A stretch of DNA of 64,000 nt, from positions 13,589 to 77,588 of the forward strand of contig JBAXAJ010000003.1 in the NCBI GenBank assembly GCA_037142555.1, given 5' to 3'. The stretch comes from Candidatus Shapirobacteria bacterium (GTDB taxonomy: Bacteria > Patescibacteriota > Microgenomatia > UBA12405). The notes under the pieces were generated by a model. The model was given only the letters and a program-made list of their open reading frames with translations, was not told the DNA's origin and searched no databases. Numbering within the stretch: position 1 is the stretch's first letter; every line of letters begins with the position of its first letter. A program made the translations under genes and the position numbers. Positions 1,604 to 20,791 of the stretch are shown here, one piece after another.

Positions 1604-2596
1604 ATGGATATTTCAAAACTAAAAACTTTTTTAGAAGAAAACAATCAACCAGCTTTCCGCTATCGACAAATAATCAAAAACTATTTTTCTGGTCAATTTA
1701 GTTCTTTTGAACAGATGACAAATCTATCAAAAGATTTAAGACAAGTTCTAGAGACTAACTTCCCATATTCATCTCTAAAAGAATTAAAAGTCTTAAAAGA
1801 TGAACAAACCGAAAAAGTAGTTTTAGAATTGGAAGATGGTCAAAAAATAGAATCAGTTTTAATGAACTACGATGAATGGTTAACTGTTTGTGTTTCCAGC
1901 CAAGTTGGTTGTCCTCTCAATTGCAGTTTTTGTGCCACTGGCAAAATGGGTTTCAAAAGAAATTTAACAGCCGATGAAATTGTTGATCAAATCCTATTTT
2001 GGAATCAAAAATTATATCCAAAATATGTTGGTCGGGTTGTTTTCATGGGGATGGGTGAGCCTTTCTTAAATTGGGATAATCTTTTTAAATCTCTAGAAAT
2101 CATAAATTCAGAAACTGGTCTAAACATAGGTGCTCGAAAAATTTCTATTTCTACCGCTGGTGTGGCTGACAAAATAGTTGAATTTGCCAATCTTAAGGCT
2201 CAATATAATTTAGCCATTTCTCTTCATTCAGCTGATCAAAACAAAAGAGAATCATTCATGCCAATTGCTAAACAGTTCAATCTTGATGAACTCAAAAAAG
2301 CTTGTCTCTATTATGTCAATAAAACTAAACGACAACTATTTTTTGAATATGCTCTAATGGATAATAATACTAGTCAAAGCGATGCTAAATTATTAGTTGA
2401 TTTCATCAGATCTCACCATCTTTTCTTTTTGAATTTAATTCCTCTAAATCCTGTTTCTGGTGGAATGACTCCAGCCACCAAAGAAAATGAAGAAATCTTC
2501 ATAAATTATTTAAATAAATCAAATATAGAATATTCCCTCCGTCGTTCTTTTGGTCAAAATCTTAATGCCGCCTGTGGTCAGTTAGTTACTGTATAA
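1604..2596 (+). CDS. rlmN: radical-SAM 23S rRNA/tRNA adenine-C2 methyltransferase RlmN-like
   Basis: CPLNCSFCATG radical-SAM CxxxCxxC cluster motif, a MGMGEP motif and ~330 aa length typical of RlmN/Cfr. Confidence 0.8.
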   Translation: MDISKLKTFLEENNQPAFRYRQIIKNYFSGQFSSFEQMTNLSKDLRQVLETNFPYSSLKELKVLKDEQTEKVVLELEDGQKIESVLMNYDEWLTVCVSSQVGCPLNCSFCATGKMGFKRNLTADEIVDQILFWNQKLYPKYVGRVVFMGMGEPFLNWDNLFKSLEIINSETGLNIGARKISISTAGVADKIVEFANLKAQYNLAISLHSADQNKRESFMPIAKQFNLDELKKACLYYVNKTKRQLFFEYALMDNNTSQSDAKLLVDFIRSHHLFFLNLIPLNPVSGGMTPATKENEEIFINYLNKSNIEYSLRRSFGQNLNAACGQLVTV

Positions 2597-2603
2597 TATA
2601 CCC

Positions 2604-3554
2604 ATGCTTATCGATGAAGTTAGAATCAATATTAAAGGCGGCGATGGTGGCGATGGTTTCGTCCACTTCTATTCTGACGCTTGGAGACCAAAAGGTGGCC
2701 CAGACGGCGGCGATGGCGGTAATGGCGGTTCAGTTTATTTCGAGGCAGTCAACGACATCAGTAAATTAAGTCAATTCAGACATGCCAAGGTCTATTCAGC
2801 CGAAGATGGTGTTGCTGGCAGCAAAAACAATTGTAATGGTAAAAATGGTGAAGATTTAACTATCTATGTTCCAGTTGGAACTCTAGCTACTTATGATAAT
2901 GGAACTTCAACCGAATTCACCGAAATTGGTCAACGCGCCATGATGGCTAAAGGTGGAACTGGTGGCCATGGAAATAATTTCTTTAAATCATCAACTAATC
3001 AAACTCCTCGAGAATGTCAAAAGGGTTTCAAAACTCCAAAGAAAAATCTATTTTTACAACTAAAATTAATTGCTCAAGTCGGTCTAATTGGGTTGCCAAA
3101 TGTTGGTAAAACCAGTCTTTTAAATGAAATAACCACTGCTGGAGCCAAAGTTGCTAACTATGCTTTCACCACTCTCGAACCAAATCTTGGGGTAACCGCC
3201 GCTGGTCACATCATTGCCGACATCCCTGGGTTAATTGAAGGTGCAGCCGATGGTAAAGGTCTAGGTTTCAAATTTTTAAAACATATTGAAAGAACTAAAC
3301 TTCTAGTCCACTGTGTTTCTGCTGAATCTCAAGATCCATTAGCTGACTATCAAACCGTTCGCCAAGAATTAATTAATTACAGTTCTAAACTAGCTGACAA
3401 AACAGAACTTGTTATTTTAACCAAAACAGATGTTGTCGAACCAAAAGAAGCAAAAAGAATTCAATCTCTCATTAAAGCAAAACTCTCAGTATCCATCCTA
3501 GACACTGAGAGCATTAAAAAACTAAACGATTTAATCTCAAAAAGTTTAAACTAA
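2604..3554 (+). CDS. obg: GTPase Obg
   Basis: N-terminal glycine-rich Obg fold (GGDGGDGFVHF, GGPDGGDGGNGG) followed by a G-domain with GLPNVGKTSLLN (G1) and DIPGLIEGA. Confidence 0.9.
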   Translation: MLIDEVRINIKGGDGGDGFVHFYSDAWRPKGGPDGGDGGNGGSVYFEAVNDISKLSQFRHAKVYSAEDGVAGSKNNCNGKNGEDLTIYVPVGTLATYDNGTSTEFTEIGQRAMMAKGGTGGHGNNFFKSSTNQTPRECQKGFKTPKKNLFLQLKLIAQVGLIGLPNVGKTSLLNEITTAGAKVANYAFTTLEPNLGVTAAGHIIADIPGLIEGAADGKGLGFKFLKHIERTKLLVHCVSAESQDPLADYQTVRQELINYSSKLADKTELVILTKTDVVEPKEAKRIQSLIKAKLSVSILDTESIKKLNDLISKSLN

Positions 3555-16394: not shown

Positions 16395-17270
16395 TTATTT
16401 CTTTGTTACCAAATAAGCTCCTACAAAAGCGACAATCGCACCGATAATATATTCAATAGATAGTTTTTCACCCAACAACAATATTGACCAAAAGAAAGTA
16501 AATATTGGCTGAAGATAAAAAACCATTGAAGTTATAATTGGTGAAGCTTTCTTGATTGTGTGTTGATATAAAAGAAAATAACCAGCTGTACCTAAAATTC
16601 CAACATACAAAACACTCAAAATAACAGGCATTGATAAATTTGAAACAATATTTGGGATATTAGGAACAGTTGCAAAGGCGATAAGTCCTTGGACAATTAT
16701 TGTTAATGCTACAAAAGTAGTTGTAATAAAAATAGGTGATGAACTTTTCTGTAGGTCTTTAGAAAAAACAGTGTAAAAAGAATATGCAATAACAGCAACT
16801 AATACAAGTAAATTCCCCCATATAGTATTTTCTCCACTTACAGAGTGTGTAAGGAATGGGACTAAAATAATAACTGAAACACCTAAAAATCCAAGAACTA
16901 TGCCAGTGATCTTAGTTTTAGATAATTTCTCTTTATAAAAAAAACTAGTTATTAAGGCAACAATAATTGGAACAGCCGCATATAATATTTGAGCTACAGT
17001 TGCTATGGATTTTCTAATTCCCATTGCAAAAAAGGTCACATTTACGACTGCTAAAACAGAAACTAGTAAAGTTTTAATTAAAGTATTTTTATTTATTTTT
17101 TCTTTCTTATATAAAAATATAGGAAATATAAATAACCCAGCGGCAACAAATCTAAGAGCAATAAATAGTGGAGTGGTAAGTTCGTTAAGGGCAATTTTGG
17201 TAAAAGGTGAAATTCCTCCACCAAGAAAGGCAACTATTATTACTAAAATGATTGGGATATAACTACTCAT
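16395..17270 (-). CDS. EamA/DMT-family 10-TM transporter
   Basis: 291 aa with two hydrophobic 5-helix halves, typical of the drug/metabolite transporter superfamily. Confidence 0.6.
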   Translation of the reverse strand: MSSYIPIILVIIVAFLGGGISPFTKIALNELTTPLFIALRFVAAGLFIFPIFLYKKEKINKNTLIKTLLVSVLAVVNVTFFAMGIRKSIATVAQILYAAVPIIVALITSFFYKEKLSKTKITGIVLGFLGVSVIILVPFLTHSVSGENTIWGNLLVLVAVIAYSFYTVFSKDLQKSSSPIFITTTFVALTIIVQGLIAFATVPNIPNIVSNLSMPVILSVLYVGILGTAGYFLLYQHTIKKASPIITSMVFYLQPIFTFFWSILLLGEKLSIEYIIGAIVAFVGAYLVTKK

Positions 17271-17396
17271 TGATATTAGTATATCAACGTTTATTTTAAT
17301 TACTGATTCTAAACTGTGACCCCAGACCTACCGCAAGGGAACCAAATCATCAATGAACTTATTTTCTACTTCAAAATCTTTGCTGATGATATTTCC

Positions 17397-17444
17397 AGCC
17401 TAATAAATCCTGTTCAATTACTCCCCGTATAGAGAATAGAACTA
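17397..17444 (+). repeat. direct repeat copy 2 (48 nt), 12 nt upstream of the CYTH gene start
   Basis: agcctaataaatcctgttcaattactccccgtatagagaatagaacta. It is in the same orientation as copy 1. Confidence 0.8.
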
Positions 17445-17456
17445 AATAATAATATT

Positions 17457-18050
17457 TTGTTAAAATTAATTATGGAAATTGAATATGAAGCAACTTTTAC
17501 TAATATAGACAAAAAAGATATTCGTTTTGAATTAAAAAAAATTGGGGCTAAACTTATAAAATCAGAATTTTTACAAAAAAGAATAGTTTTTTCACTTCCT
17601 GTAGGGAATGAGATTAAAGGTGGTTGGTTAAGAGTTAGAGATGAAGGTAATAAAAATACAATGAGTCTTAAAATTGTTGATGGTAATAAAATTGAAAATC
17701 AAAAAGAAATATGTTTAGAAATTAATGATTTTAATAAAGCCGTTGATTTTCTCGAGTTGATAGGTTGCAAAAAAAAATCCTACCAGGAATCAAAAAGGGA
17801 ATTATGGAAAATAGATGATGTTGAAATTACTATTGACGAGTGGCCTTTTTTGGAACCATTTATAGAAATTGAAGGAAAATCAGAAAAATCTGTTAAAAAT
17901 GTTTGTAAGAAGTTGAAATTTGATTATGAAAAAGCTATTTTTGATAGCGTTGATTTTCTTTATAGTAAAAAATATAAAATTCCAAAAGAAAGAATTAATA
18001 ACCTAACACCACGAATAGTTTTTGGAGAAAAAAATCCTTTTTTAAAATAG
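17457..18050 (+). CDS. CYTH-domain protein (CyaB/thiamine-triphosphatase-like triphosphate tunnel)
   Basis: N-terminal MEIEYEATF with the ExExK signature, later acidic motifs, and ~190 aa size typical of CYTH proteins. Confidence 0.55.
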   Translation: MLKLIMEIEYEATFTNIDKKDIRFELKKIGAKLIKSEFLQKRIVFSLPVGNEIKGGWLRVRDEGNKNTMSLKIVDGNKIENQKEICLEINDFNKAVDFLELIGCKKKSYQESKRELWKIDDVEITIDEWPFLEPFIEIEGKSEKSVKNVCKKLKFDYEKAIFDSVDFLYSKKYKIPKERINNLTPRIVFGEKNPFLK

Positions 18051-18052
18051 TG

Positions 18053-18124
18053 TGACTCTACGGGGAATCGAACCCCGATTGGCAGAATGAGAATCTGCTG
18101 TCCTAACCATTAGACGATAGAGCC
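18053..18124 (-). tRNA. tRNA-Glu (anticodon CUC)
   Basis: Minus-strand sequence GGCTCTATCGTCTAATGGTTAGGACAGCAGATTCTCATTCTGCCAATCGGGGTTCGATTCCCCGTAGAGTCA folds as a cloverleaf. It has a 7-bp acceptor stem, U8, A14, GG in the D-loop, a GCAGA/TCTGC anticodon stem, loop TTCTCAT with U33, C34-U35-C36 and A37, and a TTCGATT T-loop. No CCA is encoded. Confidence 0.85.
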
Positions 18125-18366
18125 TTATTATTTATTAATCTTTCAACAGCTTTTCTACTCTTCCAAGATTTAATTTGTGTTTCTCTTTTTCTTGCTAGAG
18201 AAAGTGTCAAAAGTTCCTCAAAGTATATCAAATTCCAAGGCATTTTTAATTTTGTGTATCTAGATCTTCCAGTATTATGGTAATTTAACCTTTCTTTTAT
18301 ATTTGAAGTCGATCCAATATAATAAGAATTATCTTTTAATGAAATTAAAATATAAGTATAATACAT
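18103..18366 (-). CDS. GIY-YIG nuclease-family small protein (YhbQ/UPF0213-like)
   Basis: MYYTYILISLKDNSYYIGSTSNIKERLNYHN...YTK...PW.LIYFEE....A...E..IK is a GIY-YIG catalytic core in 87 aa. The start is taken at the Met preceding the domain; the track ORF extends to 18498 across the tRNA fragment. The last 7 codons overlap the tRNA-Glu 5' end. Confidence 0.7.
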   Translation of the reverse strand: MYYTYILISLKDNSYYIGSTSNIKERLNYHNTGRSRYTKLKMPWNLIYFEELLTLSLARKRETQIKSWKSRKAVERLINNKALSSNG

Positions 18367-18374
18367 GTAATTTA

Positions 18375-18450
18375 TCCTAACCATTAGTCCCGATCCTTCG
18401 GATCGAGGATGCTCGATTCGGCTTATTATCGAATCGGCAACGATAGAGCC
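18375..18450 (-). pseudogene. duplicated 5' fragment (nt 1-24) of tRNA-Glu interrupted by a 52-nt hairpin-containing insertion
   Basis: Minus-strand sequence GGCTCTATCGT[52-nt insert]CTAATGGTTAGGA is identical to tRNA positions 1-11 and 12-24. The insert TGCCGATTCGATAATAAGCCGAATCGAGCATCCTCGATCCGAAGGATCGGGA contains two hairpins: CGATTCG/CGAATCG, and CTCGATCC-GAA-GGATCGGG. No anticodon or T-arm follows. Confidence 0.7.
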
Positions 18451-18471
18451 AAATACTGTATAATTAACTAG

Positions 18472-19611
18472 ATGAATTTTACCAAATTTAACTATCATTT
18501 AAAGCTTATTGCTCTAACTGTTCTTTTTTCCACCTTTTTTACCTTATTTTTCTATTTAAACATCCCTGGAAAAATTGGATTTAATAATGTTTCTTTGGAA
18601 ACTATTTTTGCTAATTATGATGGTCCAAATTACATGGTTATCGCCAGATGTGGCTATGACAAAGATTGTATCAGTCAAAACTTTCCTCAATATAATAAAC
18701 CTGAATATTATCCAGCTCACTTGCCAGCCTACCCAGCTTTAATTAATATTATTTCTAATTTCACTTCAACTCCAAAAGCCATGATTCTAGCGACTCTCTT
18801 AAGTTCTATTTTCTTAACTTTAATATTTTTTGAGTTTTTAAAACTATTCATCAAAGAAAAAACAGCTTTTTGGTTGTCAACTCTTCTTCTATTTTTCCCA
18901 GCCCGTCTTCTAGTTTTGCGTCAAGTCGGTGCTCCAGAAGCCCTATTTTTAGCCACCATAATCGCTTCAATCTTCTATTTTAAAAAAGGCAAATATTTAA
19001 TTTCAGCCATTTTTGCTGCCATTGCTCAAAGTCTAAAAAGTCCAGGAATTCTTTTATTCATCTCTTTTGGAATAATGGCTATTTATGAATTAATTAAATA
19101 CAAAGACTTTTTAAAAACTTTTAAAAAATACATTTGTTATCTATTAGTTCCAGTCACAGTTTTTGGTGTCTTCTATTTATATTTAGTTCAAACAGGGGAC
19201 TTTTGGGCATATTTTCATAGTGCCGACAACTATAATTTAATAACTAAAATCCCTTATGCTGTTTTCTGGGGAAATCATAGCTGGGTCAACACTATTTGGT
19301 TAGAAGACATTGTTTATATCTTCTTGATAGCGTTCTATGGAATATATCGTTTATTCAAAAAATATAAATTTGATATTATTACTATTTTCCCGATCGTTTT
19401 TATGGTTGCCACTATTGGAGTAGCTCATCGTGATATCAGTCGTTACATCGCTCCAATCTATCCTTTCTTATTATTAGCCTTTGCAAAATTTTTAGATAAA
19501 AAATCTATCAAAATAATTTTTCTGATTTTACTTCCAGCCATTCTTCTCTATGCCATCAACTTCATTTCTGGTAACATCGCTCCAATCTCCAACTGGGCCC
19601 CATTTCTCTAA
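18472..19611 (+). CDS. polytopic membrane protein, possibly GT-C-like glycosyltransferase
   Basis: 379 aa with 9 or more predicted hydrophobic helices. No soluble catalytic motif is recognised, and the start may lie at a downstream Met. Confidence 0.4.
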   Translation: MNFTKFNYHLKLIALTVLFSTFFTLFFYLNIPGKIGFNNVSLETIFANYDGPNYMVIARCGYDKDCISQNFPQYNKPEYYPAHLPAYPALINIISNFTSTPKAMILATLLSSIFLTLIFFEFLKLFIKEKTAFWLSTLLLFFPARLLVLRQVGAPEALFLATIIASIFYFKKGKYLISAIFAAIAQSLKSPGILLFISFGIMAIYELIKYKDFLKTFKKYICYLLVPVTVFGVFYLYLVQTGDFWAYFHSADNYNLITKIPYAVFWGNHSWVNTIWLEDIVYIFLIAFYGIYRLFKKYKFDIITIFPIVFMVATIGVAHRDISRYIAPIYPFLLLAFAKFLDKKSIKIIFLILLPAILLYAINFISGNIAPISNWAPFL

Positions 19612-20486
19612 CTAATATAAATCTTATTATTTTCTTGTACGATTAAATCTCTCATCAACATCATCGAGATTGTTGTTGATATTTCACTAATTGGTGATCT
19701 AATTTTTTGACACAATTCATCAATCGTCACTTCTTCATTTTCTAAAACTGAAATTATTTCTTTTTCTAATTCAGATAAATTACTATAGTCTTTAAATAAA
19801 TTTTGTTGATTAGGACAACTACTATTATTTCCCAAAATATCAGCCACACAAGTCACCATTTTTGCCCCTCCACTTTGAATTAACCAATTTGTTCCTTCAG
19901 CAGTTTTAAAACCAATTTGGCCAGGGATAGCAAATATATTTTTCTTTTGTTTCAATGCTAATTTGGCCGTGATTAAACTTCCTGATTTCAACCCAGCTTC
20001 AACTATAAAAACTCCGATAGTTGATAGGGCCGACACAATTCTATTTCGTTGAGGAAAGCTCCATAAAGTTGCCTTAAAATCTGGTTCATATTCTGAAATT
20101 ACTAAACCACCTTTTTCCAAAATTTCAGTATAAAGATTATCGTTTTCACTTGGATATAACTCATCAAGTCCGCTTCCCAAAACCGCAATCGTTTTACCAC
20201 CTAATTCAAGACAATTTCTATGAGCCTCACTATCAACCCCATACATAAAACCAGAGATTATAGTAATTTTTTGACCAATTAACTCTGGCATAAATTTACT
20301 AATTATTTCTCGTCCATAGCGACTCAAAGCTCTGCTCCCCACTACTGCTAGTGTTTTAATAAATAGTTCTTCATTCCAACTTCCTCGATAATATAATTTT
20401 TCTGGACAATCACTAATTTTTTTTAAAAGATCAGGAAAATCTTTTTTCTCAATCATTTTAATCGGCCATCTCTTCCACTCTTTCAT
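19608..20486 (-). CDS. dprA: DNA-processing protein DprA (Smf)
   Basis: Rossmann-like LAVVGSRALSRYGREI...ISGFMYGVDSEAHRNCLELGGKTIAVLGSGLDELYP, the hallmark of the DprA/Smf fold. Confidence 0.85.
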   Translation of the reverse strand: MKEWKRWPIKMIEKKDFPDLLKKISDCPEKLYYRGSWNEELFIKTLAVVGSRALSRYGREIISKFMPELIGQKITIISGFMYGVDSEAHRNCLELGGKTIAVLGSGLDELYPSENDNLYTEILEKGGLVISEYEPDFKATLWSFPQRNRIVSALSTIGVFIVEAGLKSGSLITAKLALKQKKNIFAIPGQIGFKTAEGTNWLIQSGGAKMVTCVADILGNNSSCPNQQNLFKDYSNLSELEKEIISVLENEEVTIDELCQKIRSPISEISTTISMMLMRDLIVQENNKIYIS

Positions 20487-20791
20487 ATATTTTCATAATG
20501 ATTAATCCTTTCAATTTCTTTATCTACTTCATTTAATACAATACAAAGCGCGTCAATTCTGTATTTCTTAAACTTCTTAGCAATTTTATTTTCTAAAATT
20601 AAAAAGCTTTCAGCTACTCTTTTAATTTGACTAAGTTTTCTCTTATCAATCATTTCCTCTGGAATCCCAAATTTATCTCCAACTTTTAATTTGACCTCCA
20701 CAAACACCACCAGTTCATATCCTTTTTTGACCAAAAATTCCCTAGCCATATCTTCACCATTTTTCCCTTTATTATAATTTTCTATTTTCAT
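20483..20791 (-). CDS. yraN: YraN-family (UPF0102) putative endonuclease
   Basis: 102 aa with N-terminal GKNGEDMAREFLVKKGYELV and a later D..E.K PD-(D/E)xK-like core. Confidence 0.6.
   Translation of the reverse strand: MKIENYNKGKNGEDMAREFLVKKGYELVVFVEVKLKVGDKFGIPEEMIDKRKLSQIKRVAESFLILENKIAKKFKKYRIDALCIVLNEVDKEIERINHYENI

Follow-up and report, generated by a model that had tools for sequence, protein, structure and literature searches.

A contig of Candidatus Shapirobacteria bacterium (GenBank assembly GCA_037142555.1, contig JBAXAJ010000003.1), a placement with which the names on identical or near-identical proteins agree, supplied the 64,000-nucleotide stretch of DNA that was analysed as a whole and is called here the window. 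At positions 18052-18450, read on the minus strand, lies a block in which the gene for a small GIY-YIG nuclease is lodged in the 5' part of a tRNA-Glu(CUC) gene. The block begins with a copy of the first 24 nt of the tRNA, interrupted by a 52-nt insert (termed here H); the nuclease gene comes next, and it runs into a complete tRNA-Glu(CUC), which is the functional copy and stands 3' of the cassette made up of the nuclease gene, the 52-nt H and the copy of tRNA nt 1-24 (Table 1). A preliminary description, made from the sequence of the window, had given this order, and its anatomy withstood re-examination: the 24-nt match, split 11 + 13 by the insert, is exact on alignment, the insert folds as single-stranded DNA (ssDNA) into two stable hairpins on both strands, the 87-codon gene starts 9 nt downstream, after an 8-nt spacer, and the first 22 nt of the tRNA double as its last seven codons and stop. 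The 11-mer and the 13-mer each occur in the window only at the tRNA and the fragment, in the correct order; dinucleotide shuffles of the window, with one mismatch allowed, gave 0.30 and 0.12 chance matches, respectively. No second insert, GIY-YIG gene or tRNA fragment was found in the 64-kb window, and the list of open reading frames (ORFs) holds no recombinase between the tRNA repeats.

Table 1. Features at the tRNA-Glu(CUC) locus, by position in the window.
Feature	Positions	Strand	Basis
Complete tRNA-Glu(CUC), no encoded CCA	18052..18124	-	ARAGORN; Rfam RF00005, 61.9 bits, E 2e-12
Single-domain GIY-YIG nuclease gene, 87 codons, ATG 18366 to TAG 18105-18103	18103..18366	-	Pfam PF01541, E 2.5e-17
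Gene/tRNA overlap, 22 nt; tRNA nt 1-22 = last 7 nuclease codons (KALSSNG) + stop	18103..18124	-	sequence
AGGA 18378-18375 (copied 3' strand of tRNA D-stem) + 8-nt spacer, then ATG	18367..18378	-	sequence
Segment B, CTAATGGTTAGGA = tRNA nt 12-24, exact	18375..18387	-	alignment
Insert H, 52 nt, dyad-symmetric hairpin pair	18388..18439	.	ssDNA folds of both strands; covariation
Hairpin 2 of H, TCC-T-CGATCC GAA GGATCG-GGA	18409-18388
Hairpin 1 of H, TGC-CGATTCG..CGAATCG-A-GCA	18439-18410
Segment A, GGCTCTATCGT = tRNA nt 1-11, exact	18440..18450	-	alignment; empty-site comparison
Putative native tRNA promoter, TTGGTA 18485-18480, 17-nt spacer, TATACA 18462-18457	18451..18485	-	reading of sequence

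For comparison, 97 loci were retrieved with the nuclease protein, and orthologous loci with the neighbouring membrane protein, whose gene is divergent from the block. The same arrangement lies beside this divergent gene at nine further loci (L018, L001, L002/L019 and L103-L107), and in another genomic context at L108. At four orthologous loci (L098, L099, L101 and L102) there is no nuclease gene, fragment or insert: the flank ..CATCTAGTCAATTGTACAACATTT leads straight into an ordinary tRNA-Glu(CUC), and because this flank matches that of the filled sites, the fragment of the latter stands at the native position of the tRNA 5' end. The comparison shows the block as an insertion/deletion polymorphism at an orthologous site, which bears out the earlier proposal that it is an insertion: relatives whose tRNA-Glu lacks both gene and fragment do exist, with the tRNA in the place of the fragment behind the same upstream flank. 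An ancient, fixed architecture, universal among relatives and diverged at neutral rates, had been named as what would speak against insertion; the arrangement is indeed old in the clade, yet some relatives lack it and its divergence is not neutral. When the membrane protein is placed on a neighbour-joining tree, filled sites alternate with empty ones (the window is sister to the empty L098), a distribution that requires no fewer than three independent gains or losses. L103 points to horizontal movement: its cassette clusters with those of L018 and the window (83-85% identity), as do its hairpin type and its tRNA D-loop allele, whereas its host gene clusters with L002/L106 (76%).

Two observations concern the far side of the same tRNA. 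In L106 a serine recombinase gene (1777-3264, minus strand) lies directly 3' of tRNA-Glu, and the otherwise identical contigs of L002 and L019 part exactly at the tRNA 3' end; from these, the tRNA seems to double as an ordinary integration site on the side away from the cassette.

The copied tRNA segment has not been left to drift. Across ten loci it shows 0, 0, 1, 0, 2, 0, 4, 1, 1 and 6 mismatches to its own tRNA, and in the six columns at which the tRNAs vary it carries the local tRNA base in 58 of 60 cells. Substitutions confined to a single lineage are mirrored as well, such as T4 in the window, which is compensated in the tRNA by A69, and the mirroring extends over the paired positions 4 and 6, Levitt position 15 and also the unpaired D-loop positions 16 and 19. 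The copy tracks its own tRNA, without decay, across synonymous divergences of 0.5-1.9, a pattern that shows the two sequences evolving in concert, the copy being either homogenised with the tRNA or selected to match it; that unpaired positions are mirrored points to conversion rather than to pairing. A long target-site duplication from staggered cuts was rejected as the origin of the copy, because H lies inside the repeat at the same position in all ten loci.

H itself is conserved in form rather than in letters. As ssDNA, each of its strands forms two neighbouring hairpins (-14.7 and -14.8 kcal/mol; z -3.2 and -4.0), and H is dyad-symmetric, with both DNA strands showing the same hairpin order. 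In the ten orthologous loci, pairing holds in 94.9% of cells, and both partners are altered in 8 of the 19 pairs, a covariation matched by none of 500 shuffles; sliding the stem partners cuts pairing to 23-55%. Compensatory changes include the flipped closing pair TCC/GGA to TGC/GCA, and CGA/TCG to CGG/CCG. Sixteen short elements from unrelated loci, with 12-13 different stem sequences, likewise gave 138 of 160 paired stem cells. We take these patterns to show that selection maintains the hairpins. G-U pairs are nearly absent from the stems (1 of 138 in the short elements and 1 of 175 in the orthologous loci), and on account of this and of the two-strand symmetry H reads as DNA hairpins rather than as RNA structure; the small structured RNA that the preliminary description had entertained, which also finds no Rfam match, is the less likely form.

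The other suggestion made there, a miniature mobile element, fared better, for H is a member of a recurrent double-hairpin family. The scaffold of this family has the form TCCCGA..TCGAGGATCC..TCGGGA, with the consensus TCCCGA-stem/loop-TCGAG(G/C)ATCC-(T)-CGA-stem/loop-TCGGGA over the 97 loci, and its ends TCCCGA/TCGGGA are inverted repeats. Inverted-repeat ends, and the occurrence of the same scaffold with an ORF in the loop of hairpin 1 at about 13 loci, are as in miniature inverted-repeat transposable elements and REPINs; the single H in the 64-kb window and the lack of target-site duplication are not. Elsewhere, several scaffold copies may share one contig (L042, L027 and L069). We rejected 27 IMG/VR matches to the H pattern as chance, since they were GC-rich coding sequences with no hairpin complementarity and no tRNA or GIY-YIG gene nearby.

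Among the 97 protein-retrieved loci surveyed, 87 had enough flank to be scored for tRNA adjacency. A same-strand tRNA directly adjoins 55 of these 87 homologues (63%), and an opposite-strand tRNA adjoins one; tRNA genes occur at a density of about one per 20 kb, at which chance adjacency would amount to a few per cent. The scaffold is found with homologous nucleases in about 35 loci. Its short form, of 40-90 nt and devoid of an ORF, sits inside 5' pseudo-copies of the downstream tRNA: in about 20 loci the pseudo-copy is broken by H at tRNA position 11/12, 17/18, 22/23 or 35/36, and the tRNAs so copied are Glu(CUC), Glu(UUC), Gly(GCC), Ala, Asp and Ile. A compact form of about 310 nt, present in about 13 loci, holds the nuclease ORF in the loop of hairpin 1. 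Whole tRNAs are found within a hairpin loop in L039, L069, L027 and L053, and in two of these loci a resident tRNA is split by the element (tRNA-Glu(CUC) in L053, 1930-2410; tRNA-Ala(CGC) in L027, 470-1000), which encloses the nuclease ORF together with a second, intact and non-identical gene for the same tRNA; when the outer halves are joined, ARAGORN calls them tRNA-Glu(CUC) and tRNA-Ala(CGC).

Protein genes are affected too. The compact form occurs in or beside them, always co-oriented, in L057, L029, L052, L096, L028, L066/L074/L086 and L067; at some of these loci the gene's first 7-22 codons recur upstream as a short, diverged copy (copies that, from a reading of the flanks, appear topA-, mutM- and uvrB-like), and at others the element precisely breaks the last 12-15 codons. 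No target-site duplication was found at any H or compact-element insertion surveyed. Splicing of H or of the compact element at the RNA level was set aside, since function is restored through the duplicated gene ends and no locus is without an intact tRNA. These loci show that insertion of the same scaffold with homologous nucleases extends to other tRNA genes and to the neighbourhood of protein genes.

Further arrangements turned up in the same survey. Sixteen loci have the mirror-image order, in which the tRNA is followed by the ORF and then by 25 nt copied from the tRNA 3' end. The tRNA is tRNA-Ala in L077, L054, L063, L076 and L093, and in such tRNA-Ala loci a 17-nt TCCCG-ATTNNAT-CGGGA hairpin takes the place of the 17-nt anticodon arm in the copy; it is tRNA-Glu(UUC) in L017, which belongs to the Gammaproteobacteria and thereby takes the mirror-image pattern beyond Patescibacteria. 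L042 (900-1500) carries, before a real tRNA-Ile(UAU), three tandem 155-nt units that each consist of a pseudo-tRNA-Ile (nt 1-17, double hairpin, nt 18-38) and a spacer with the reverse complement of the tRNA 3' end; this array has no nuclease ORF. Tandem GIY-YIG homologues were seen in L011 (600-3260), a Mariniphaga contig with four copies after tRNA-Met, and three homologues surround tRNA-Glu in L023 (2000-2990).

The 87-aa nuclease consists of a GIY-YIG domain (PF01541, residues 1-71) and the 7-residue tail encoded by the tRNA, whose final ALSS(N/S)G recurs in 12 homologues; Pfam found no further domain, and so no DNA-binding domain. We collected 46 homologues and scored residue conservation in 35, in which Y16, G18, S19, T20, R26, H30, E62 and K66 are invariant and Y5 nearly so; by this alignment the catalytic Tyr, Tyr, Arg, His/Lys and Glu that define the GIY-YIG superfamily are conserved. 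In four filled loci the ratio of nonsynonymous to synonymous divergence (dN/dS) is 0.07-0.18 at dS 0.5-1.9, values that indicate strong purifying selection on the gene where the block is present. Such constraint, together with the retained catalytic residues, disagrees with a degenerate homing-endonuclease insertion, one of the alternatives raised in the preliminary description.

In a profile search of the Protein Data Bank, whose ranking excludes Ssn because no Ssn structure has been deposited, the closest solved relatives were the UPF0213 protein BH0048 (1zg2, E 5e-13), 1ywl and SLX1. The sequence places the single-domain GIY-YIG nuclease in the UPF0213/SLX1/Ssn branch. UPF0213 proteins (E. 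coli YhbQ and B. subtilis YazA; 1zg2 and 1ywl) and SLX1 thus share its small GIY-YIG fold family, but the two UPF0213 genes inspected lie beside RNA methyltransferase genes and not in tRNA genes. These two, a Sphingomonas plasmid gene (L136, 1495-2543) and B. subtilis yazA (L137, 280-831), which overlap or abut the methyltransferase genes, were among six matches of a tblastn search of plasmids and gave no guidance on where the protein belongs. The UPF0213-type genes inspected differ in genomic habit from the tRNA-embedded family.

The nearest described system, and a working model for the block, is the Ssn family of nucleases (Chenal et al., 2025; PMC11893778): proteins of about 94 aa with a single GIY-YIG domain, encoded by genes that have hairpin repeats on their flanks. 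In Neisseria, SsnA recognises its repeat in ssDNA alone and cleaves a few nucleotides upstream, being inactive on double-stranded DNA (dsDNA) and on RNA; Ssn modulates transformation in Neisseria, and the repeat-gene-repeat unit has been likened to an insertion sequence, with its domestication discussed (PMC11893778). That paper makes no mention of tRNA or Patescibacteria. The nuclease of the block is likewise single-domain (87 aa, against about 90-100 aa in Ssn), and its catalytic Tyr, Tyr and Glu are spaced as expected; here, too, a conserved hairpin-forming repeat (20-50 nt in Ssn) accompanies the gene, and the core TCCCG..CGGGA + C resembles the core TTCCCGCG..CGCGGGAA + TC of the Neisseria repeat (NTS). 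The differences are that the SRM consensus HGTCWYN(0-2)YYVSBRHN(0-5)WNVSBRGN(0-2)RNCYNB is not matched in the block, that its hairpins stand in tandem, with dyad symmetry about the invariant centre TCGAG(G/C)ATCC, that the window has one hairpin copy in 64 kb and Neisseria hundreds, and that the cassette, known here from its sequence, lies within a tRNA gene of which one end is duplicated. By analogy, the block would work like an Ssn/hairpin pair, a likeness that does not amount to assignment to the cd10448 family. In the loci compared, H behaves as a conserved companion of the nuclease family, and most likely it is the ssDNA site that the nuclease is predicted to bind and cleave, at which the scarcity of G-U pairs and the good ssDNA folds of both strands hint indirectly.

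Other systems share single traits with the block. Phage T4 SegB (PMC2330249) is a GIY-YIG gene lodged among tRNA genes, variably present among relatives and inherited with flanking tRNA sequence; however, the Seg enzymes are larger, carry a DNA-binding domain and cut dsDNA, in a phage genome, and they have neither a companion hairpin nor a duplicated tRNA fragment. The presence/absence polymorphism typical of free-standing homing endonuclease genes is found here, with four empty and nine filled sites. With IS200/IS605 elements and the RAYT/REP/REPIN system the block shares a small nuclease that recognises ssDNA hairpins (here by prediction), short non-autonomous hairpin derivatives, co-oriented copies and the lack of target-site duplication, but their enzyme is an HUH tyrosine transposase that works through covalent intermediates. 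A GIY-YIG hydrolase is unable to rejoin DNA alone, so repair or recombination would have to complete any move. Integrative elements that target tRNA genes likewise bring or duplicate the displaced part of the tRNA, which stays functional, and leave a partial repeat bracketing the cargo; in the window it is the 5' end (nt 1-24) that is duplicated, there is no recombinase, and the cargo measures 0.33 kb.

On this evidence, the reading that we favour, with a confidence slightly better than even, is that the block at 18052-18450 is a small selfish mobile cassette of hairpin and nuclease residing in the 5' part of tRNA-Glu(CUC). The complete tRNA is kept downstream and the copy occupies the original 5' end behind the promoter, so the host would lose nothing. 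The putative native tRNA promoter, whose TATACA ends 7 nt before 18450, overlaps the start of the divergent membrane-protein gene (ATG 18472, plus strand), and the flank that contains it is kept in filled and empty loci; it would drive fragment, nuclease gene and tRNA as one cassette transcript. (A scan for promoters and terminators was uninformative in this AT-rich DNA, with 4 promoter-like sites against 2.9 expected.) The AGGA of the copied D-stem, 8 nt before the ATG, is probably the Shine-Dalgarno sequence of the nuclease gene and would serve as its ribosome-binding site: ..TAGGA stands 1-9 nt before the ATG in six of the ten related loci (the window, L018, L103, L104, L001 and L106), but it is changed or missing in the other four. 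Since the ORF ends inside the tRNA, a cut by RNase P at 18124 would remove its stop codon.

Movement in such a cassette would be homing-like, with recombination on the conserved tRNA sequence and flank spreading it between related genomes, and recombination between the 11-13-nt direct repeats allowing its precise loss, a loss that H, placed inside the 24-nt repeat, may slow. If the nuclease cuts beside H and the break is repaired from the real tRNA, the resulting gene conversion would keep the copy identical to it, giving the concerted evolution described above. Several findings weigh against the selfish cassette or this account of its workings. All comparison loci come from metagenome assemblies. 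Identities of nuclease and host gene correlate positively (r 0.56), so much of the history could be vertical inheritance accompanied by losses; with a single H in 64 kb, the element is no proliferating repeat here; and the direct repeats, at 11 and 13 nt, are on the short side for gene conversion of the RecA type. H stands 21 nt upstream of the ORF in the window and does not enclose it, unlike hairpin 1 of the compact form. The published SRM consensus, finally, was matched once in the 329 kb of loci scanned, at more than 300 nt from any homologue; shuffles gave 0-3 matches, which makes this the chance level.

A contrasting explanation is that the nuclease and its hairpin are a domesticated host function, controlling recombination or incoming ssDNA as Neisseria SsnA/NTS do, which happens to be parked in the tRNA-Glu unit, with the fragment as a by-product. 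Strong purifying selection and long retention at one locus would be expected of such a function, the positive correlation of nuclease and host-gene identities agrees with it, and the competence genes dprA and a comM-like gene adjoin the block, recalling the modulation of Neisseria transformation by Ssn (PMC11893778). We nevertheless consider it unlikely: close relatives live without the block, one hairpin element in 64 kb compares poorly with the hundreds in Neisseria, and a scaffold that splits resident tRNAs and also occurs, with gene ends duplicated, within or next to protein genes behaves like a parasite. Less probable again is that the fragment and insert act as RNA, forming a structured 5' leader or tRNA-like decoy that pairs with the tRNA 3' half or recruits RNase P or another factor, and so controls translation of the nuclease or maturation of the tRNA. 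The fragment does lie within the probable transcript, the copy mirrors tRNA positions 4, 6 and 15, the hairpins covary, and the ORF stop inside the tRNA means that RNase P processing and translation must compete. But the unpaired D-loop positions 16 and 19 are mirrored as well, the stems are essentially without G-U pairs, H is symmetric on both DNA strands and turns up also in protein genes and 3' of tRNAs, the leader as a whole has an ordinary RNA fold (z -1.45), Rfam gives no match to it, and Neisseria SsnA binds no RNA.

That the block is what remains of a group I intron or of another classical homing-endonuclease insertion strikes us as very improbable. GIY-YIG enzymes are typical of intron-encoded homing endonucleases, tRNA genes of Patescibacteria carry group I introns (PMC13011429), and the nuclease weakly matches an NCBIfam group I intron endonuclease (E 0.002, far below the cut-off). 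The 87-aa protein, however, has no DNA-binding domain, there is no ribozyme in a non-coding total of about 70 nt for which Rfam reports tRNA only, and the tRNA is uninterrupted, the insertion lying in the D-arm region and not in the anticodon loop. Least credible of all, and close to dismissed, is the classic scar of site-specific insertion proposed in the preliminary description, a genomic island brought by an integrase that used the tRNA as its attachment site. A partial tRNA duplicate does bracket the cargo, and L106 has its serine recombinase gene just 3' of this tRNA; that gene, though, is on the tRNA's other side and absent from the window, the duplicated end is the 5' one, the cargo of 0.33 kb holds no recombinase, the fragment is conserved and not decaying, and the comparison of empty with filled sites refutes the scheme.

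Some candidate features around the block were discarded. A 131-codon ORF from 18498 is a calling artefact, because it reads through the fragment and its homologues begin MYYTY or MPYTY. An Rfam scan of 17000-19500 with E up to 10 returned tRNA only; weak matches to Plastid-ycf2, mascRNA and DUF2693 were rejected, as all overlap the tRNA and fall far under their gathering scores. The DUF2693 RNA match (18052-18216, minus strand; 22 bits against an 81-bit cut-off, E 0.18) covers the tRNA and 90 nt of the ORF and is most likely driven by the tRNA alone. Between dprA and the comM-like gene, the window has a UPF0102 (YraN-like) ORF (20483-20791, minus strand) of 102 aa, against 124-125 aa in five related loci, a shortening that may reflect an internal deletion.

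Returning to the selfish cassette, a broader reading can be put forward tentatively, and as a joint proposition we regard it as possible but doubtful: that hairpin-bounded, Ssn-like GIY-YIG cassettes form a class of their own among prokaryotic mobile elements; that this class enters tRNA genes and the ends of protein genes on ssDNA, preserves the function of the target by duplicating its end or carrying a replacement tRNA, and leaves short hairpin derivatives behind; and that the tRNA-identical arms of 11 and 13 nt are no scar but maintained homology or guide arms, which would steer the nuclease or the repair to matching tRNA genes. Thousands of small genes for single-domain GIY-YIG proteins carry the annotation 'GIY-YIG nuclease family protein', their role undescribed, and the 2025 Ssn study only speculated on the likeness of the hairpin-gene-hairpin unit to an insertion sequence. 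The loci compared here are comparative evidence that hairpin-gene units come and go, and the marked preference for tRNA genes (63% of 87 copies) appears to be unreported: literature searches turned up no earlier account of it and no published link between these nuclease genes and tRNA genes. If the proposed mechanism holds, a hydrolytic ssDNA nuclease would join the short list of enzymes of DNA mobility, many of the odd tRNA fragments and 'tRNA-like' calls in assemblies of Patescibacteria and Bacteroidota would be explained, and natural pairs of hairpin and nuclease, complete with flanking arms, would become available for ssDNA tools.

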